Source of the DNA: Clostridia bacterium | Lineage (GTDB): Bacteria; Bacillota; Clostridia; UMGS1883; UMGS1540 | Direction: 5' to 3' | DNA length: 25,060 nucleotides | Assembly: GCA_045578945.1 (NCBI GenBank) | Contig: JAZNLF010000078.1 | Span: 1-25,060 of the forward strand | Part shown: positions 184-11,128 of the stretch, one piece after another | How positions within the stretch are numbered: the first letter of the stretch is position 1 | Layout: each line of letters begins with the position of its first letter | Notes under the pieces: generated by a model | Databases searched by the model: none | Told to the model about the DNA's origin: nothing | Seen by the model: the letters and a program-made list of their open reading frames with translations, nothing else | Made by a program: the position numbers and the translations under genes

Positions 184-230
184 AGTGCAATATGCCTTGC
201 AGCATATGAAAAAGCATTTTTGAAAACGTG

Positions 231-263
231 AGGGCATACCGCAGCAGAAAAGCGGTATGCCCT
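231..263 (-). terminator. GC-rich hairpin just downstream of the lipoprotein remnant; probable terminator or stabilising stem
   Basis: Perfect 12-bp inverted repeat AGGGCATACCGC-N9-GCGGTATGCCCT; T-tract is short and offset. Confidence 0.5.
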
Positions 264-274
264 TAATTTGTTTA

Positions 275-448
275 TCAAGCCTGTCTTGTATACATTCTTC
301 GCCTTATCATACTTATCTTGAATTTCTTTAGCTTCTTCGGTTTCAGGGAATTTGCCAAATCACCACAAGCAGGATCATTGCAGCCTGCTGAAAATGCAAA
401 TGACATAACCACCATAAGCAATACTGCTAAAATTTTTTTATAATACAA
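275..448 (-). pseudogene. Frameshifted or truncated lipoprotein gene remnant
   Basis: TTG-started frame MYYKKILAVLLMVVMSFAFSAGC (signal peptide II with lipobox Cys) stops after 57 aa; a protein-like segment FGKFPETEEAKEIQDKYDKAKNVYK lies in another frame just after the lipobox region; not in the ORF track. Confidence 0.5.
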
Positions 449-454
449 TCTTTA

Positions 455-958
455 TTATTTTAAAGCTCTCAATAAGAATGTAACAATCTGCCCCCTTGTG
501 CAGGTTGCCTCGGGTGAGAATGTAGTGGCAGATGTGCCCGAGGTAATACCATTTTGTACCGCCCAGGCAACCGCCTTCGCGTAATCAGCGTTAACCGGCA
601 CATCTGTAAATGTGCTTACTGTACCCGCATCAGGTGAGCCTGCGTTTTTCCAGAGATAGACAACAGTTGATGCACGTGTACAAGGGGTATCCGCAGCAAA
701 CTCATTCCCGCTTACCATATCTTTCTCATATGCCCACATAGCAGGATAGTAATAATAGTGACTGCCGCTTAAATCTGCAAACGGATTTTCTATCGCCGAT
801 ACAGGCGGTTTTACAGCTCTCCATAAAAATGTGAGAATTTGCGCTCTCGTACAGGTGTTGTTCGGTGCAAACTCCGTTTCAGATACGCCTGATGTTATAT
901 TTCTTTGCAAGGCCCATTCAACAGCTTCTGCAAAATAATCGCTTTTATTCACATCCCT
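455..958 (-). repeat. Paralogous 3xSLH module, copy 1
   Basis: Visible DNA and protein similarity to 1629..2140 and 2893..3410 (e.g. TTTTGTACCGCCCAG, GCGTAATC, ATATGCCCAC in more than one copy). Confidence 0.8.
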
Positions 959-1603
959 GCAGAGGCAAAGCTTCGGAATGGTCAGCCTTATATCTATATC
1001 CGTTTCTGCCACGCCATTTACTGCATGTAATGTGCCTTTGAAATAACCAGCCTTTTCTGTTGTTGCCTTTTCTATATCAACCGCACCGCCCTTCCATCCG
1101 AGAACGGTTCCGTTTTTGCACGCAGCTTGTGCAGCTTCACGTACAGATATGTAGCCCGTCATGTTGCTCATATTCATAACATCCAAAGCATCCAGTACAT
1201 TATTCACATCCGCTTCGAGTGCAGCCTCTGCATCCACATCCGCTCCTGTCTTCGGAATTACAATACGCACTAAATAGTGCTTCGTAAAATCGTATTTTTC
1301 TCCGGTTTTCTGCGTGAAAAGAAAATTTGCAGAAACTGAGCCGTCTTTTTCTGTTGTTGCGTTATAAACCTTAAAATTAGAGGTGTAGTCATAATCTAAC
1401 GTAATATGATACTCTTCCGGAATCAGCGCCTGAACTGCAGCTTTAAAATCATCCTCGCTCATATCGTTATATACCGCTATTGTATCCTTCTTAGCTTTTA
1501 CGGCATCAATTGCCTCGTCCAGATAGTCTACCACTGCATAGGATGTAAATGCTGTTGAAAGAAGTAAAACTGTCGTAAGAATGAAACCTATTATTTTCTT
1601 CAT
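455..1603 (-). CDS. Secreted SLH-domain surface protein with two tandem ~90-aa repeats of unknown function
   Basis: Signal peptide MKKIIGFILTTVLLLSTAFTSYA; three C-terminal SLH-type repeats (AVEWA..GITSG..F.P...CTRAQILTFLWRA); RBS AAGGAG. Confidence 0.9.
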   Translation of the reverse strand: MKKIIGFILTTVLLLSTAFTSYAVVDYLDEAIDAVKAKKDTIAVYNDMSEDDFKAAVQALIPEEYHITLDYDYTSNFKVYNATTEKDGSVSANFLFTQKTGEKYDFTKHYLVRIVIPKTGADVDAEAALEADVNNVLDALDVMNMSNMTGYISVREAAQAACKNGTVLGWKGGAVDIEKATTEKAGYFKGTLHAVNGVAETDIDIRLTIPKLCLCRDVNKSDYFAEAVEWALQRNITSGVSETEFAPNNTCTRAQILTFLWRAVKPPVSAIENPFADLSGSHYYYYPAMWAYEKDMVSGNEFAADTPCTRASTVVYLWKNAGSPDAGTVSTFTDVPVNADYAKAVAWAVQNGITSGTSATTFSPEATCTRGQIVTFLLRALK

Positions 1604-1628: not shown

Positions 1629-2140
1629 TTATTTTATCGCTCTATTTAAAAATGTTACAATTTGTCCTCTTGTGCACGTCATGTCGGGAGAGAAGGTAGT
1701 CTCACTCGTACCTGATGTAACACCGTTTTGTACCGCCCAGCTAACCGCATTTGCGTAATCAGCATCAGCAGCCACGTCTGCAAAAGAGTCTACAGTGCCC
1801 ACATCAGGCGAGCCTGCATTCTTCCAAAGATACATAACTGTTGCAGCTCTTGTACAGGGTGCAGTTGCACTAAATTTACCTCCGCTTACCATACCCTTTT
1901 GATATGCCCACACCGCGGCATCATAATAATAATGACCACTGCTGACATCTGCAAACGGATTTGTATCGTTTGCTTTGGGTGCGCCTACCGCACGCCACAG
2001 AAAAGTCAGGATTTGCGCTCTGGTACAGGTGTCATCGGGTGAGAAAGTGGTTTCGGATGTCCCTGCGGTAATGTTTCTTCCCACAGCCCAGTTAACTGCC
2101 GCAGCGTAGTACGCATCGGGTTTTACATCAATAAAAGCAG
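1629..2140 (-). repeat. Paralogous 3xSLH module, copy 2
   Basis: Same module as copies 1 and 3; shares the stretch CAGGTGTCATCGGG..AAAGTGGTTTCGGATGT with copy 3. Confidence 0.8.
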
Positions 2141-2879
2141 CATTTTTAGGTTCTTCGGAGTCTTCAATCCGTCCCGGCGGTGTAGGGCTTTGCGTTGCAG
2201 GGCCATATCTGTATGTGAAAACAGGAAGATTCGGCGCATTGATTCTCGGTGTGTAGTTACCATTTTCTTCCTTCATTGCCTCAAAGGAAAGGGGCATATA
2301 TGAAACATAGCCGTTTGCAGTTGTCAGGATGAGATAAACTTTTGAAATTTCTCTTGCATTTAAGCTTCTTAAGTCGGTGCTTACCTTACAGTCAACAATC
2401 GTATCACGAGCTGTAAACTGCTGTATCCATGTGTTTCCTTTCTCGCCATATCCGACTCCCATATATCCGGCTGAGAAGCTTAAAATATTCGCACGGTGAC
2501 CGGAGCTGTTCATCCATGATTCTACCACCTGCTCGGGACTGGTCTGCCCTCTTGCCGCATTTTCGCCCGCACCTTTGTGCGGAAATGATTTCGGTATTGT
2601 TGTATAACAACCGGAGCCGTCAGGTCTGGTGTGTGAAAATGAAGTTTCCAGTTCGACTGCACGAATATCGCACGATGCCTGAAGGTCGGAAACCATAGAC
2701 AATGACTGAAGGCCGACGTTTGCACGCTCGATATTGACCAGTTTTAAAACTTCCCATTCATAATCCAGCGCAATGGCTTTTATTTCGTCAGGCAGGCTTT
2801 TTGAGGCTGCCATAGCAGGAACGCTCACTATACCCATAAGCATACATACACATAAAAGTATACTGAAAATTCTTTTCAT
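1629..2879 (-). CDS. Secreted CAP (SCP/PR-1)-domain protein with three C-terminal SLH repeats
   Basis: Signal peptide; CAP motifs EVLKLVNIERA, FSHTRPDG, GENAARGQTSPEQVVESWMNSSGHRANIL, MGVGY, WIQQF; SLH repeats; RBS GAGGAG. Confidence 0.92.
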   Translation of the reverse strand: MKRIFSILLCVCMLMGIVSVPAMAASKSLPDEIKAIALDYEWEVLKLVNIERANVGLQSLSMVSDLQASCDIRAVELETSFSHTRPDGSGCYTTIPKSFPHKGAGENAARGQTSPEQVVESWMNSSGHRANILSFSAGYMGVGYGEKGNTWIQQFTARDTIVDCKVSTDLRSLNAREISKVYLILTTANGYVSYMPLSFEAMKEENGNYTPRINAPNLPVFTYRYGPATQSPTPPGRIEDSEEPKNAAFIDVKPDAYYAAAVNWAVGRNITAGTSETTFSPDDTCTRAQILTFLWRAVGAPKANDTNPFADVSSGHYYYDAAVWAYQKGMVSGGKFSATAPCTRAATVMYLWKNAGSPDVGTVDSFADVAADADYANAVSWAVQNGVTSGTSETTFSPDMTCTRGQIVTFLNRAIK

Positions 2880-2892
2880 AATTTAATCTCCT

Positions 2893-3410
2893 CTACTTCT
2901 TGACTGCTCTTTGCAGGAACGTCACAATATGTGCTCTTGTGCAGGTGTCATCGGGAGAAAAAGTGGTTTCGGATGTACCTGATGTAATGCCGTTTTGTAC
3001 TGCCCAGCTAACCGCCTTTGCGTAATCGGCATCAGCGGGAATATCCGTAAATGTGCCAGCAGTCCCAACATCCGGAGAGCCTGACATTTTCCAGAGATAC
3101 ACAACCGTGTCGGCACGGGTTACAAACTTGTCGGCTTCAAATTTGCTTTTTTCAACCATACCCTTTTCATATGCCCACCAGGAGGATGCAAAGTAGTAGT
3201 CCTTGTAGTTTACATCGGTAAACGGGTTGTAAGAAATTGTGTACTTCGGCTCTCCCATAGCTCTCCAGATAAATGTAATAATCTGTGCCTTTGTGCAGGT
3301 GGTATCGGGGGAAAAGGTAGTAGGAGAAGTACCTGTTGTAATTTTCTTGTCTACCGCCCATTTTACAGGCTCTGCATACCAGGCACTTGCGGAAACATCT
3401 GTGAAATTAC
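2893..3410 (-). repeat. Paralogous 3xSLH module, copy 3
   Basis: Same module as copies 1 and 2. Confidence 0.8.
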
Positions 3411-6171
3411 CTACAATTTCTGCATTCGGCTTTGATGCTACTGCATCTACGCTGGGAACTGTAAAGCTATCTTCGGGAATAGAAGCAAGAACCTTTCTTC
3501 CGAGTGATGAAGCGTTCTTCCATGCACTTCCCGAAACAGAATTGCCGTTTGCATAGCAATTGTTTGTGGTAAAGGTGGCGTCCGGCAGATATACAAGGTC
3601 TGCTTTTCCGGGCAAACCCAAAGCGGTAATCCCCTCATCAATTGTGAGCTTCCCAACATTATAACAGTTCGTAAATGCGCAATTGCAGTTTGTTCTGCCG
3701 TAGTAGGCAAGTCCTGCAACGGCATTTGCTGTCAGATTCCCCGAATTGTAGCAATCAGAAACAGTTGAATGTTCTACCGCTTTTAAATCGCCGTATTTCT
3801 CTGCATATACAAACAGACCGCAGGCAACCGAGTTATAACCGTTCCCCCAATCCATTAAGGGCAGCGTAATATCCCCCGAGTTGTAGCACTCGCTTATCTT
3901 TGACTTTTGAATATCGGCAGCAAGACCACCCGCTATAAGGTAGAAGATATCATTATCGTTTGACTTTACCGTAATATCCGCATCATTAAAGCATTTCGTC
4001 ACTGTACTTCCGGCAATTTCCGCGGCTAAGCCACCGAACATAAACTGCAAAGTCGAAAGATGTTTTGCCCCGGGGGCTTTCGTGATGTTAAAGTTCATTT
4101 TTCCGTTTGCCGTATAGCAGTTTGTGATAGTAGCATCCAGCGCATGTGTGGCAAATGAACCTGCCCAGATATACAAAGGCTCGGAATATGCCGAATATGT
4201 AACGTCGATATTAAAGTTTATAAGTCCAAGGTTGCGTATGCCGGCATCATTGTTTCCAAGACCATTTGACATATATCCCATAAGACCGAAGTAACGGTCG
4301 TTGCTTTTTGCTTGCATAAAGGGCTTTTCTTCGTTTATCTTTATGGTCATCCCCGAGATAACGTGACCATTTCCGTCAAGCTGACCTCTGAAAGCATCTG
4401 CGCCAAACTGTGCGGTATTATTGACATCATCGCCGTTGCCGCCGTAGGCAGGCGTTCCGCCGATAGGAATCCAGTTGCCCCAACCGGACAGGTCGATGTC
4501 CCTTATCAGCTTAAAGTATTTAGCGCTATCTTTGCGTATGGCATTAAGCTGCTCTGCAGTTTCAATCAGGTAAGGATCTTCCTTCGTTCCGCTTCCCCCT
4601 GCAAAGACATAGGGGCTGTCGTGAAGCACAGCCGGAGCGCCCTGCCAGTAATCCTTCATGACAACTTCCGTGAGGTATGATCTGGGTACAAATCCAATCC
4701 TGTTTGAGGCGATAACTCTGCACCATTCTCCCTCGACATCGGGAATTACATCTGAAATATCGAAGTCGAGAATTTCAACTGTCTGATTTGGCTGTATTTT
4801 GTATTTATCTTCGTTTATACCCATAGGATATTTCCAAAGGTACGGCTCAATTAACCAGATATTGTTATCGAGCTTTACCGAAAAATGTTCACTAACCTTT
4901 GCCGTTCCTATAACAGGCAGAGCAACACCTCTCTCATACTTATGCTTTTCATAATAGTCTTGCATAGCCTGTGTGGGCTTGGCAGCTGCGGGTAGCTGCG
5001 GGTCAATATATACATGGTAAACGAGCTCTATTGTTTTTTCATTTATATGATTGATGCTGTATGTATTGACTATCCGGAAGTGCTTGCCATTTTCTTCGAT
5101 GTATTTGAATGTTCTGTCCGTATTGGTCTTTACATCCTTTGAAAAATTATAGGAGTCTTTTGCAACATAGGTTGCGGTGGCAGTTACCATAGAGTACGGC
5201 TCGGGGACCTCTGTCGTGCTATATGTCACGCCTGTGCAGGCATAAGTATCTGTCTTTACAAGCGAGGCGAGCGGCTCTTTTGTGCCATATTCTGACATAT
5301 AGGGCTTTGAGAACACAGTTGCATGAAGGAAGTTTACATCAATTTCGGTTATTTCTTTAAACTTATATCTTTTTTTCGCAAACTTTTCATGATACGGTCT
5401 TTCCGAGTCGTTGCCTTCTTTTAAGAAATTGCCGAAGGTTGCTTTGGCATCATTCATATTTACATAATCAACTTCCTCAAGGCGCTCATTCCAGATAGCA
5501 TAATATGTGGCATCTGTGTCAACGCCGTCAACACCTGCCTCCAAAACGGTTATGGTTGCTCCGGTTTTCTGACTTGAGCCATACATAGTTCTTGTGTCAG
5601 GCTCATGATATATGGAATATCCTCCGCTTACAAGCTCCATTGTTCCAAAATCGCCTGCTTCAAATTTGTCAACCTTTACAGCTTTCACATCTTCGGAATT
5701 TTCTTTTTTGGGTGCGGTAGATTCTTTTGGCGCCTTGGTTTCGGTAAATTTATACGTCAATTTAATCGTACGGTTGCCGTTTGAAAGCTTGATTGTGGGC
5801 GGAAATCTGTTTACCATGTGGTCGGCCGTTCTTGAACTGAACACTTTGTTCTCAGCGCTGTCTTTTAAACTGACAGTCACAGTCAAAGTGTATTTTACAC
5901 CTTCCTTAAAGCATCCGTTGTTATCAAGCTCTCCCGACCATTCATAATCATCCATTTCCATATCGTTTGTATTCCCAAGCTCTATGTTATCGTAAGGCTT
6001 TTCACCTGCAACAGGCGTGTCAACAAATACAGAAGCATATACCGATTCCATTTCAATCGTATATTCTGTCCTGAAAGCTTCCTTACTTGATATACATCGC
6101 CTCAACATACCCGGTGCCGGAAAGATTAAGCATCTTATTTGTATAGCGTATCTTATGCCATCTTCCGTCAA
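2893..6171 (-). CDS. Large SLH-anchored surface protein, C-terminal part (SH3-like domains, GLUG/ZmpB-like region, 3 SLH); probably one gene with 6083..6397
   Basis: 1092-aa ORF without signal peptide; GGSGTKEDPYLIETAEQL...DIDL..W.PIG..F.G.LDGNGH motif; SH3-like GEWCRV...GFVPRSYL; C-terminal SLH repeats. Confidence 0.85.
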   Translation of the reverse strand: MTEDGIRYAIQIRCLIFPAPGMLRRCISSKEAFRTEYTIEMESVYASVFVDTPVAGEKPYDNIELGNTNDMEMDDYEWSGELDNNGCFKEGVKYTLTVTVSLKDSAENKVFSSRTADHMVNRFPPTIKLSNGNRTIKLTYKFTETKAPKESTAPKKENSEDVKAVKVDKFEAGDFGTMELVSGGYSIYHEPDTRTMYGSSQKTGATITVLEAGVDGVDTDATYYAIWNERLEEVDYVNMNDAKATFGNFLKEGNDSERPYHEKFAKKRYKFKEITEIDVNFLHATVFSKPYMSEYGTKEPLASLVKTDTYACTGVTYSTTEVPEPYSMVTATATYVAKDSYNFSKDVKTNTDRTFKYIEENGKHFRIVNTYSINHINEKTIELVYHVYIDPQLPAAAKPTQAMQDYYEKHKYERGVALPVIGTAKVSEHFSVKLDNNIWLIEPYLWKYPMGINEDKYKIQPNQTVEILDFDISDVIPDVEGEWCRVIASNRIGFVPRSYLTEVVMKDYWQGAPAVLHDSPYVFAGGSGTKEDPYLIETAEQLNAIRKDSAKYFKLIRDIDLSGWGNWIPIGGTPAYGGNGDDVNNTAQFGADAFRGQLDGNGHVISGMTIKINEEKPFMQAKSNDRYFGLMGYMSNGLGNNDAGIRNLGLINFNIDVTYSAYSEPLYIWAGSFATHALDATITNCYTANGKMNFNITKAPGAKHLSTLQFMFGGLAAEIAGSTVTKCFNDADITVKSNDNDIFYLIAGGLAADIQKSKISECYNSGDITLPLMDWGNGYNSVACGLFVYAEKYGDLKAVEHSTVSDCYNSGNLTANAVAGLAYYGRTNCNCAFTNCYNVGKLTIDEGITALGLPGKADLVYLPDATFTTNNCYANGNSVSGSAWKNASSLGRKVLASIPEDSFTVPSVDAVASKPNAEIVGNFTDVSASAWYAEPVKWAVDKKITTGTSPTTFSPDTTCTKAQIITFIWRAMGEPKYTISYNPFTDVNYKDYYFASSWWAYEKGMVEKSKFEADKFVTRADTVVYLWKMSGSPDVGTAGTFTDIPADADYAKAVSWAVQNGITSGTSETTFSPDDTCTRAHIVTFLQRAVKK

Positions 6172-6397
6172 TACCGCCCTTTCCGCTTATGTACGCTTCA
6201 AGCACGTCAACCTCGTTACCGGCGCTGAGATATCCGGTAACCTTACTGCTTGAGTCCGGCTTTTCAAACACCCTCCAGTCTGTAATGACAGTAGCCTTTT
6301 CTCCCGCTTTAACTGCGTCTGCAGCAAATACAGGCATGCTCATCATACCAATCAGCATACATATACATAAAAGTATGCTGAAAACTCTTTTTTTCAT
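6083..6397 (-). CDS. Signal peptide plus SH3b-like domain; probable N-terminus of the frameshifted large SLH protein
   Basis: MKKRVFSILLCICMLIGMMSMPVFA signal peptide; SH3b pattern VFEKPDSSSKVTGYLSAGNEVDVL...WHKIRY...GYVEAMYI; RBS-like GGGGGA. Confidence 0.8.
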   Translation of the reverse strand: MKKRVFSILLCICMLIGMMSMPVFAADAVKAGEKATVITDWRVFEKPDSSSKVTGYLSAGNEVDVLEAYISGKGGIDGRWHKIRYTNKMLNLSGTGYVEAMYIK

Positions 6398-6581
6398 AAT
6401 GTAATTCCCCCTACTGCTACAAAATTATATTTGCTGCTTATTTCGTTTTCTGCTTTTTTGCAATGTCTTTTGCCTGTTGTTTTCTCTTTCCGGAAAGCTC
6501 CTCCCCAAGGCCTTTATCGCACTTCCACCAAACAGATACAGCACCTAAATGGCAGACAGTTTCAAATTTATCATCTTCCAC

Positions 6582-6610
6582 TTGAAAAATCAGACATTAC
6601 ATGTTAAAAT
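6582..6610 (+). promoter_or_regulatory. Sigma-A promoter for the merR-family gene
   Basis: TTGAAA (6582-6587), 17-bp spacer, TGn extension, TAAAAT (6605-6610). Confidence 0.65.
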
Positions 6611-6611
6611 A

Positions 6612-6642
6612 ATTATATCCCGTACCCTAAGGTACGATGCAA
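6612..6642 (-). promoter_or_regulatory. MerR-type promoter with 19-bp spacer and dyad operator, directed into the SLH operon
   Basis: Minus strand TTGCAT-CGTACCTTAGGGTACGGGA(19 nt)-TATAAT; perfect dyad CGTACC-N4-GGTACG at 6621-6636. Confidence 0.85.
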
Positions 6643-6697
6643 TAGTTGTTTTGAAATTTTCAAAAATTTTATTTTATGATTTAAATGGGGAATTTAA

Positions 6698-7462
6698 ATG
6701 AATAAAAAAAATTTATTTACCATAGGCGAGATTGCAAAAGCGGTTGGAATTACAAGAAAAGCAATCCTTGGTTATGAGACAAAAGGTCTTATAAAGCCTG
6801 ATAAAAAAGACGGAAATACAGGTAACAGGTACTACACCATTGATACGTTTACGCAGATTCGTACAATTCGAGTTTTTCAGGATTTAGGGCTTTCCCTTGA
6901 CGAAATCCGCGAATACTTTAACGATACATCAGATTTACAACCAATGATAGACAGGCTTGAAAAAATGAGGAATGAACTTAATCTCACGATAGAGAAGTTG
7001 AAAGAGAGAGTCTATAAAACCAATGAGGTTGTTAAGGAAATCACTATAGCACCGCAAGCGCTTTATGTCCGTACATACAATACTGTTACGATTGCCGATA
7101 AAACAAACCTGCTTCGTGATACTGCTCTTGAAGCGATGCGTGAATATGGAACGGACACCACGAGGCGTATGTATTTTACTCAATATTCTGCTGACGCTCC
7201 CCAAGAAATTGCATATTGTGTTGCTGTACCACCTGAAAGCAAGGGAGAATATGTAAAACAATACCCCAAGCTTAAAGCAATTTCTTTCTTCCATTACGGA
7301 GCTTATGAAGAGATTCCCGAAGCTCGAAAAAAACTGATTTCTTTTGCGCAAAACAATCATTTGAAGCTTTCGGGTACATTCCGCAACCTCTATCTTGAAG
7401 GTCCGCCACAGCACAAAGACAAAAGTAAGTTTATTACCCAGATAATTGCGATAATTGAATAA
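6698..7462 (+). CDS. MerR-family transcriptional regulator with C-terminal GyrI-like effector-binding domain (BmrR/BltR-like)
   Basis: N-terminal FTIGEIAKAVGIT....YE.KGLIKP...GNRYY; coiled-coil linker; C-terminal FHYGAYEEI..A...L...A.......G.FRNLYLEGP. Confidence 0.92.
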   Translation: MNKKNLFTIGEIAKAVGITRKAILGYETKGLIKPDKKDGNTGNRYYTIDTFTQIRTIRVFQDLGLSLDEIREYFNDTSDLQPMIDRLEKMRNELNLTIEKLKERVYKTNEVVKEITIAPQALYVRTYNTVTIADKTNLLRDTALEAMREYGTDTTRRMYFTQYSADAPQEIAYCVAVPPESKGEYVKQYPKLKAISFFHYGAYEEIPEARKKLISFAQNNHLKLSGTFRNLYLEGPPQHKDKSKFITQIIAIIE

Positions 7463-7470
7463 CGTATAAT

Positions 7471-7503
7471 AAGCCTCCGGGGATTCACATTCCCTGGAGG
7501 CTT
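7471..7503 (+). terminator. Intrinsic terminator after the merR-family gene
   Basis: AAGCCTCCGGGGA-N7-TCCCTGGAGGCTT hairpin (one G-U pair), 8 nt after the stop codon. Confidence 0.75.
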
Positions 7504-7516
7504 TACTGCACTAACG

Positions 7517-9625: not shown

Positions 9626-11128
9626 TTATTCTTTTATATCCTTTTTAAATGCCTCGTTTTGCTCAGGATATGCAGAAAGCATCGGCTCGACATCAGCGCC
9701 TTTCTTTCTGTCGTAGTAGTTTTTTGTAATTTTGGCAACCTGCCCGCTTAAGAGAACGACTGCAATTAAGTTCGGCAATGCCATCAGGCCGTTGAAGGTA
9801 TCGTCGAGTGCCCAGAGAAGCTCGCCTTCAATAACGGCGGATGCCACAATCAAAACAACATAGATAACCTTAAACACGACAACAGAAACACGACGGCCTT
9901 TCTCGGGGAGCCATTGGAAGAAGAATTCCGTTGCCTTCTCGCCGTAGTACGACCATGCCAAAATGGTTGTAAATGCAAACAAGGGCAAAAAGACGGAGTA
10001 GATGACGGCACCGACTGCCCCCAAATCCTGCGAGAATGCCGCCAATGCAGTTGCGGAATCGCTACCCGCATAGAAGGCACCGCTTTGGAACGCACCGCTT
10101 TGAATATTGGTTGTCAGTATAACAAGTGCGGTCAGGGTACAAATTACAAAGGTATCAAAGAATACCTCGAAAATACCCCAAAGACCTTGTTTGACAGGCT
10201 CGCGGACTTCGGATGCAGAGTGCGCGATAACGGATGAGCCAAGGCCTGCCTCATTTGAAAACACACCGCGCGCCAAGCCTTTTTTAATAATATCTGAAAA
10301 GACGAAGCCGCCGACGCCGCCTGCAACAGCCTTTGCGGAGAATACGCTGGTAAAGATAAGGCGTATCGCCTCGGGGACTGCTTTTACGTTTATAAAAATA
10401 ATAATGATGGACATAATGATAAACGCCAAAGACATAAAGGGTACGAGCATAGAGGCCACTTTGCCGATTCTCTTAATGCCGCCGATAACGACAATCCCTG
10501 TTATCACGGCCACAATCACGCCAATGATAATTTGCGATGCGACGGAATCTGTATGCAGAATGGATGTTATCGTTCCCGTGATTTTATTTGTCTGCACGCC
10601 ACTCATACCCACGGCAGCGAAAAGGCAGAAAAATGCCGCAATGTAGCCGAGCCATTTCTGCTTTAAGCCATACGCGATGTAGTAGAAGGCACCGCCCGAA
10701 AAGTTGCCGTCTTTATCCTTTTTTCTGTAGTAAAGACCGAGTACGTTTTCTGCATAATTGGTAAGAAGACCGAAGAATGCAGAAATCCACATCCATACTA
10801 CGGCACCGGGGCCGCCTGTCAAAATTGCAGATGTAACACCGATGATGTTACCCGTTCCGACCGTTCCCGAAATTGCGGCAGAAAAAGCTTCAAACTGGGA
10901 AATGGAATTTTCGTTCTTTTTCTCTTTGTTGCCCTTGCCGATATCTTTGATGGCAGGGACGATGGTTGTATTTACGGATTCGCCGAATTTTCTGACCTGC
11001 AAAGCGCGCAGACGAATGGTAAGCAAAAGCCCTGTACCCAAAATCATGATAATCATGGGCCAACCCCATACAAAGCCGTTTACCTTGTCATTTACGCTTG
11101 CGATTGTTTCGATAATGCTGTTCCACAT
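9626..11128 (-). CDS. Sodium:alanine/glycine symporter (AGCS family, AlsT-like)
   Basis: Motifs GTVGTGNIIGV, GGPGAVVWMWISAFFG, GGAFYYI, GGIKRIGKVAS, RGVFSNEAGLGS, MALPNLIA; RBS GGAGG. Confidence 0.95.
   Translation of the reverse strand: MWNSIIETIASVNDKVNGFVWGWPMIIMILGTGLLLTIRLRALQVRKFGESVNTTIVPAIKDIGKGNKEKKNENSISQFEAFSAAISGTVGTGNIIGVTSAILTGGPGAVVWMWISAFFGLLTNYAENVLGLYYRKKDKDGNFSGGAFYYIAYGLKQKWLGYIAAFFCLFAAVGMSGVQTNKITGTITSILHTDSVASQIIIGVIVAVITGIVVIGGIKRIGKVASMLVPFMSLAFIIMSIIIIFINVKAVPEAIRLIFTSVFSAKAVAGGVGGFVFSDIIKKGLARGVFSNEAGLGSSVIAHSASEVREPVKQGLWGIFEVFFDTFVICTLTALVILTTNIQSGAFQSGAFYAGSDSATALAAFSQDLGAVGAVIYSVFLPLFAFTTILAWSYYGEKATEFFFQWLPEKGRRVSVVVFKVIYVVLIVASAVIEGELLWALDDTFNGLMALPNLIAVVLLSGQVAKITKNYYDRKKGADVEPMLSAYPEQNEAFKKDIKE

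Follow-up and report, generated by a model that had tools for sequence, protein, structure and literature searches.

MerR-type regulators that carry a drug-binding GyrI-like domain are the textbook controllers of efflux and detoxification. Members of the family bind sigma-70/sigma-A promoters with spacers of 19-20 bp (PMC8113463) and, once bound to their signal, activate transcription by kinking and under-twisting this spacer (PMC8113463, PMC9909328), a mechanism of DNA distortion that includes BmrR (PMC9909328). Another member, EcmrR, is a multidrug-sensing activator of such 19-bp-spacer promoters (PMC8113463). Here, we analysed a 25,060-nucleotide (nt) stretch of DNA from a Clostridia bacterium (contig JAZNLF010000078.1 of assembly GCA_045578945.1, hereafter "the window"), in which a predicted regulator of this kind shares a compact two-promoter region with divergent genes for secreted proteins carrying SLH domains. 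A first-pass annotation made from the sequence alone had proposed that this MerR/GyrI sensor controls an operon of surface proteins and not a pump, a proposal that is now supported by the conservation of the locus, by the covariation of regulator and operator and by the nature of the targets, about 80% of which are secreted or SLH proteins.

Read directly from the minus strand, the promoter that faces the surface-protein genes consists of a TTGCAT box (6642-6637), a 19-nt spacer (6636-6618) and a TATAAT box (6617-6612), and positions 1-16 of the spacer form the perfect dyad CGTACC-TTAG-GGTACG (6636-6621). The opposing promoter of the regulator gene consists of TTGAAA (6582-6587), a 17-nt spacer and TG-n-TAAAAT (6605-6610), and a promoter scan reported the same site. 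Both promoters, the first with its internal dyad at 6642-6612 and the second at 6582-6610, had been called in the first-pass annotation and are found exactly there. Their -10 hexamers are separated by 1 nt, so that the plus and minus transcripts would overlap by about a dozen bases. When up to one mismatch was allowed, TTGCAT-N19-TATAAT was observed once in the window for an expectation of 0.21, and the dyad once for an expectation of 0.02. No further copy of the operator was found in the 1.24-Mb genome (83% complete), even with up to 3 mismatches, and the regulator itself is present there as a single copy.

The regulator encoded next to this region is 254 amino acids (aa) long and, judging from domain profiles and from its predicted structure, is a BmrR/EcmrR-type MerR regulator with a winged helix-turn-helix (HTH), a coiled coil and a GyrI-like small-molecule pocket. 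Pfam recognised MerR_1 with an E value of 1.1e-14 (54.6 bits for a cut-off of 21.6), together with MerR-DNA-bind (25.6 bits for a cut-off of 25.4) and GyrI-like (26.3 bits for a cut-off of 26). A profile search that used the regulator and five homologues as query matched EcmrR (6xl5) over residues 9-253 with an E value of 3e-18, CtaZ (7zhd) with 2e-12 and the C-terminal domain (CTD) of EcmrR with 3e-9. An AlphaFold model (pLDDT 88.7) places a winged HTH with helices at residues 9-16 and 20-28 and a wing at about 33-46, followed by a long single helix at 81-104, predicted to form a coiled coil, and by an alpha/beta GyrI-like domain at 113-253. The model thus contains the DNA-binding HTH, the predicted antiparallel coiled-coil dimerisation helix and the GyrI-like domain that define the BmrR/EcmrR subgroup of the MerR family. 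In Foldseek searches, the top full-length matches were EcmrR (6xl5_G), BmrR and BrlR, and the C-terminal domain aligned with that of EcmrR (6wl5) with a TM score of 0.80 by target length. Across the family, the sensor domain is no less conserved than other parts of the protein, with a mean pairwise identity of 73%, compared to 81% for the HTH, a degree of conservation that is consistent with a shared or similar ligand; judging by the fold, the probable ligand is a small gut molecule that is hydrophobic or cationic. A strong hairpin follows the regulator gene directly (7471-7504), which indicates that this gene is monocistronic.

The anatomy of this control region is conserved across species. 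A scan of species-representative genomes returned 197 relatives, of which we analysed the best 80, with regulators 67-83% identical to that of the window; all are metagenome-assembled genomes (MAGs) of uncultured gut or rumen Clostridia belonging to different species. The first-pass annotation had suggested searching related genomes for the linkage of regulator, dyad and surface-protein genes, and in this search the two-promoter region turned out to be retained in 70 of the 79 evaluable homologous loci, all with TTGCAT, a 19-nt spacer, TATAAT and a dyad of the form CG[TC][AC]C[CA]-N4-[GT]G[TG]ACG. Together with the window, these make 71 promoter-bearing loci, and in every one of them the dyad sits within a spacer of exactly 19 nt, as expected for a MerR-type site in a sigma-70/sigma-A promoter. 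In 66 of them, the plus promoter (TTGAAA-17-TATAAT) keeps a fixed distance from the dyad. Among the nine exceptions, two loci are cut by contig ends, three are variants and four have lost the region. The control region upstream of the regulator in L086 (at about 9850-10000) is also a variant: the dyad CGCACA-N4-TGTACG forms part of a far longer perfect palindrome, and another sequence takes the place of the usual -35 box; the same MAG also holds a standard copy (L089).

The regulator belongs to a large family, since 973 protein clusters (at 90% identity) were found at E <= 1e-40, but its distribution is patchy: only 9 of 60 related genomes carry it, often at contig ends. No cultured carrier of the module was found among the best 120 of the 973 clusters, all of which derive from metagenomes or MAGs. 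Many contigs end in or beside the regulator or the surface-protein genes, probably because of repeated SLH and signal-peptide DNA and of strain variation, so that the module is under-assembled in MAGs.

Regulator and operator vary together in these loci. The symmetric pair formed by dyad positions 12 and 17 (6631 and 6626 in the window) is C:G in 43 loci and A:T in 27, and base complementarity between the two positions holds in 68 of the 71 promoter-bearing loci. Residue 22 of the regulator is Ile in 26 of the 27 loci with an A:T-type operator and Ala, Thr or Val in all 43 with a C:G-type operator, so that it tracks position 12/17 in 69 of 70 loci. Of the 254 positions, this residue is by far the most informative about the operator class (mutual information 0.87-0.88 of about 1 bit), with wing residue 33 ranking second. 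In the AlphaFold model, residue 22 sits in the first turn of the recognition helix (20-28), and base-specific contacts in the MerR family are made by the central helix and the wing loop (PMC9909328). When the helix columns were left out of the tree, each trait was found to change 13 times along it; four independent contrasts are well supported, and in these the two traits change together in about 3.9 of 4 on average (sign-test p = 0.125), in a consistent direction, four contrasts being too few for formal significance. Such covariation could arise by co-evolution or by joint transfer of the HTH and its operator, and either would imply direct recognition. The pattern therefore suggests that the regulator directly recognises the dyad. 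Three MAGs contain two copies of the regulator, and in two of the three the copies belong to different classes.

What stands behind the MerR-type promoter was classified in 80 loci, namely 79 relatives and the window. In 53 of them, the gene nearest to the promoter codes for a signal-peptide protein and starts a few tens of bases downstream. A zinc-ribbon gene is first in 16 others, with a signal-peptide protein next in 12 of these, and in three more the signal-peptide gene stands second, behind an open reading frame (ORF) of about 180-455 aa that lacks a signal peptide. When the first divergent gene was considered, after the zinc-ribbon gene where there is one, a signal peptide was called in 54 of 69 proteins by a strict rule and in 59 of 69 by a relaxed one; the corresponding figures were 9 and 11 of 52 for the regulator's other neighbour and 70 and 85 of 390 for the other ORFs of the same loci. 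Pfam was then run on 61 first divergent proteins, many of them truncated by contig ends, and found SLH domains in 24, FG-GAP in 10, CAP in 9, Listeria-Bacteroides repeats in 8, Cu_amine_oxidN1 in 5, Metallophos in 4, SH3_3 in 4 and a 5'-nucleotidase C-terminal domain in 3. There was no transporter family among the 22 Pfam families found in these 61 proteins. The targets in the window are SH3-SLH, CAP-SLH and repeat-SLH proteins, rather than the efflux, detoxifying or sequestering products of a multidrug-resistance regulon.

The same three SLH genes stand behind the same promoter in a locus from another genus (L013/L033). In two further relatives (L042 and L041), CAP-SLH-like (about 417-430 aa) and repeat-SLH-like (about 381-384 aa) genes follow the promoter directly and the SH3-SLH gene is missing. 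The head of the operon appears to gain and lose genes. According to this survey, the constant partners are the regulator, the control region and secreted or surface proteins, while the passengers vary and the zinc-ribbon gene is optional.

In the window, the features of the locus are arranged as listed in the table.

Table. Positions of the features of the regulator and surface-protein locus, numbered from the first letter of the window.
Feature	Positions	Strand	Evidence or remark
Probable operon-end intrinsic terminator, 12-bp stem, 9-nt loop, short interrupted U stretch (UCACGUUUUC)	222-262	-	Fold -23.8 kcal/mol, z -6.95
Repeat-SLH secreted protein gene	455-1603	-	25 nt after the CAP-SLH gene; Pfam
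CAP-SLH secreted protein gene	1629-2879	-	13 nt after the first gene; Pfam
First surface-protein gene: signal peptide, SH3_3, long middle, C-terminal SLH repeats	2893-6397	-	Pfam and orthologue
Decayed DUF4379 zinc-ribbon gene, part of the 209-nt leader	6438-6565	-	Alignment with intact relatives; tblastn E 1e-5
Regulator's own sigma-A promoter	6582-6610	+	Sequence and promoter scan
MerR-type promoter	6612-6642	-	Sequence and conservation in relatives
Operator dyad CGTACC-N4-GGTACG (predicted)	6621-6636		Relative to the minus promoter, centre at about -23.5; relative to the regulator promoter, about +4 to +20
Regulator gene, 254 aa	6698-7462	+	Pfam MerR_1, MerR-DNA-bind, GyrI-like; EcmrR profile match; AlphaFold model; Foldseek
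Terminator hairpin shared with convergent Mrp/NUBPL-type ATPase gene	7471-7504	+	Fold -25.2 kcal/mol, z -6.86

The first surface-protein gene appears in the window as two minus-strand ORFs, one with the SH3_3 domain (6083-6397) and one of 1092 aa with the SLH repeats (2893-6171), when its orthologue in L033/L013 is a single ORF of 1165 aa. The CAP-SLH and repeat-SLH genes are intact and each has its own ribosome-binding site. The three genes of the operon had been described as SH3/GLUG-SLH, CAP-SLH and repeat-SLH; these assignments stand except for the GLUG domain, which was dropped, as none was detected in the window copy of the first gene at E <= 0.01 (one of the 61 proteins of relatives has it). 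No terminator was found by the promoter and terminator scan between the -10 box (6612) and the ATG of the SH3-SLH gene (6397), and the hairpin at 222-262 probably ends the operon. A possible lipoprotein ORF of 57 aa (275-448, minus strand), with a TTG start, a hydrophobic signal and an FSAGC lipobox read by eye, lies between the repeat-SLH gene and this hairpin. A riboswitch or other known RNA in the leader was also considered and rejected, as Rfam gave no match at E <= 1 and the predicted fold was not significant (z -0.88).

Part of that leader is a dead gene. In relatives, the intact gene starts directly after the -35 box of the regulator and encodes a DUF4379 treble-clef zinc-ribbon protein of about 90 aa with a Lys/Arg-rich tail, which scores 64-66 bits against PF14311. 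The remnant in the window retains the ribosome-binding site, the TTG start (6565-6563), the piece VWWKCDKG and the basic tail, which ends at the stop codon 6440-6438. As a result of two internal deletions, little is left of the N-terminal part and the zinc finger has lost its second half, so that the DUF4379 signature (WWxCxxGHxW ... CPxC in one open frame) is no longer present, the second Cys pair being deleted and the N-terminal part being out of frame. Contigs from two public gut metagenome runs (X2 and X3) match this remnant and the promoter without gaps, with 3-5 differences; the public runs found to hold the stretch are all DNA runs. In L013/L033, the zinc-ribbon gene was deleted independently and more severely than in the window. 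That the promoter is perfect in the window even though the zinc-ribbon gene has decayed points to selection on genes further downstream. Where it is intact, the zinc-ribbon protein could be a nucleic-acid-binding cofactor of the switch. The decayed leader and the code that links residue 22 to the operator are new aspects of the window locus.

Considering these features, we propose a MerR-type switch aimed at the surface operon, and we regard this as the probable explanation of the locus as a whole. A dimer of the regulator would occupy the dyad at 6621-6636 and, when unliganded, would keep the promoter with its over-long spacer inefficient and the surface operon low, following the mechanism known from the family. 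The regulator's own promoter would be damped at the same time, because the operator covers about +4 to +20 of its own transcript and because the two -10 boxes are adjacent. Upon binding of a small molecule in the GyrI-like pocket, the dimer would kink and under-twist the spacer, so that sigma-A RNA polymerase could use TTGCAT and TATAAT together. The resulting transcript would cross the 209-nt leader with its dead zinc-ribbon gene, then the three SLH genes as a single message, and would end at the hairpin at 222-262.

Several observations weigh against such a switch. Four relatives (L027, L052, L061 and L078) have the regulator without the operator. Two more distant homologues (L016 and L018, 57-60% identical) lie opposite ribosomal-protein genes or lack a divergent gene, and the link to surface proteins may be confined to the closer clade. 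The loci that were counted are related to each other, so that the counts overstate their independence, and the signal peptides were called by a crude home-made rule whose strict and relaxed forms differ in the choice of start. In the window itself, the leader is long (209 nt), a weak TATAAT (6429-6424) could allow an independent start, the minus -10 box lacks the TG extension that occurs in 64 of the 71 promoter-bearing loci (window included), and the first gene is frameshifted in the assembly by a 2-nt gap at 6090/6091 when compared to L033. In the four relatives without the operator, the regulator is intact, but unrelated sequence stands in place of the two-promoter region with its dyad, and the regulators may be orphans. 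The two distant homologues (L016 in genome G023 and L018 in genome G058) adjoin rpsL-rpsG-fusA-tuf or sugar-acid genes, not surface-protein genes, and a different dyad-like sequence lies upstream of the regulator in L016.

These points bear on three other ways of reading the locus. One is that the promoter controls, or once controlled, the zinc-ribbon gene only, the surface genes having promoters of their own, so that the switch in the window would now be a relic driving a dead gene. A different target gene behind a conserved dyad was the very scenario that the first-pass annotation had raised against its own proposal, and it is borne out in part: tblastn found 17 intact copies of the zinc-ribbon gene among related loci, in which it heads the operon, and a remnant of it is left in the window. 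The surface genes nevertheless still follow without a terminator: the gaps between the zinc-ribbon gene and the next gene are of 31-110 nt and contain no terminator-like hairpin in the 14 relatives considered. Moreover, most loci have no zinc-ribbon gene, the signal-peptide gene being first in 53 of 80, and promoter and dyad are perfect in both the window and L033 despite the independent decay of the zinc-ribbon gene in the two. The lone TATAAT at 6429-6424, just upstream of the SH3-SLH gene, would be a candidate for a separate start, but it has no acceptable -35 box and is absent from the output of the promoter scan. We thus find it improbable that the zinc-ribbon gene is, or was, the only target.

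The frameshifted first gene, the dead zinc-ribbon gene and the lost TG extension could also mean that the module is decaying or silent in the genome of the window, with a regulator that may still regulate itself and no functional surface proteins delivered. However, the regulator ORF is intact and keeps the conserved residues, and the CAP-SLH and repeat-SLH genes, each with a ribosome-binding site of its own, are undamaged. In a public contig from run X1 that is 99% identical, 2 additional bases after 6090 keep the first gene in frame, so that the frameshift may be a strain variant or an assembly error, and L033, which also lacks both the TG and the zinc-ribbon gene, has all its genes intact. 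There is in our view little chance that the module has been silenced, about as little as for a promoter devoted to the zinc-ribbon gene. That the motif is a chance match and that the regulator acts elsewhere is far less credible still. Single promoter-like matches are common in AT-rich intergenic DNA, and our scan finds about as many of them in shuffled sequences; but the low expectations given above, the uniqueness of the site in the genome and the conservation of the region, base for base and in register, across 70 other species with covariation of the regulator led us to reject a chance origin almost outright.

If the MerR-type switch aimed at surface genes is correct, the mechanism itself is not new, and it is the class of its output that is unusual. 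The first-pass annotation knew of no described MerR regulon of SLH or surface proteins, and we found no published one either in the collection of papers that was searched. A family-wide link to large cell-wall-anchored proteins would add an output class to these regulators, namely the remodelling of the surface of abundant, uncultured gut Clostridia triggered by a small molecule. It would also give a concrete handle on the timing of the display of adhesins and surface enzymes, through a control region of 61 bp, a sensor of 254 aa and a residue predicted to set specificity, and it would offer a natural set of probably orthogonal MerR-operator pairs for the engineering of Gram-positive anaerobes. 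We tentatively extend this to the whole sensor family of gut and rumen Clostridia (the 973 clusters), which might be a portable ligand-inducible switch for interchangeable adhesins and exo-enzymes, with residue 22 (Ala, Thr or Ile) and one symmetric operator position setting orthogonal pairs and with several independent switches per cell; this last element draws on the two of three two-copy genomes that carry different classes. This broader picture is possible, and we hold it to be slightly more doubtful than probable.

Compared to known systems, the closest solved relative of the regulator by profile and by fold is EcmrR of Escherichia coli (6xl5/6wl5), which differs by its identity of only about 22%, its Gram-negative host and its drug-response context, with no described link to surface proteins. 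BrlR of Pseudomonas aeruginosa is likewise a MerR regulator with a GyrI-like domain and a structural match, and it is tied to biofilm tolerance. Its ligands are c-di-GMP and pyocyanin. Unlike the operon described here, the outputs of BrlR are the mexAB-oprM and mexEF-oprN efflux pumps (PMC9909328).

The promoter region has its nearest parallel in merOP of Tn21/Tn501, with divergent and partly overlapping promoters, a 19-bp spacer, a dyad centred at -23.5 and GTAC cores (PMC11049809). The suggested resemblance of our dyad to the mer operator therefore holds for the centre and for the GTAC cores, but not for the register of the half-sites: the mer dyad is of the 7-4-7 type (TCCGTAC-N4-GTACGGA, from -32 to -15), whereas that of the window is of the 6-4-6 type (from about -31 to -16), with GTAC cores lying 1 bp further out in each half-site. 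An identity of the two operators was thus rejected, only the centre and the GTAC cores being common to both (PMC11049809). MerR of Tn21/Tn501 also has a metal-binding C-terminus and a mercury detoxification target, where the regulator described here has a GyrI-like domain.

BmrR and the bmr promoter of Bacillus subtilis combine both levels of likeness. The protein has the same MerR winged HTH, coiled coil and GyrI-like domain, which binds multiple drugs in BmrR (Foldseek E values of about 1e-12 to 1e-13), and its sigma-A promoter has a 19-bp spacer that holds a pseudo-palindrome. The two regulators are nevertheless only about 16-17% identical, and the regulator of the window is divergent from its predicted target, with overlapping promoters. 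The known target of BmrR is an efflux pump (PMC9909328), whereas the genes that stand behind the corresponding promoter here encode secreted SLH proteins.

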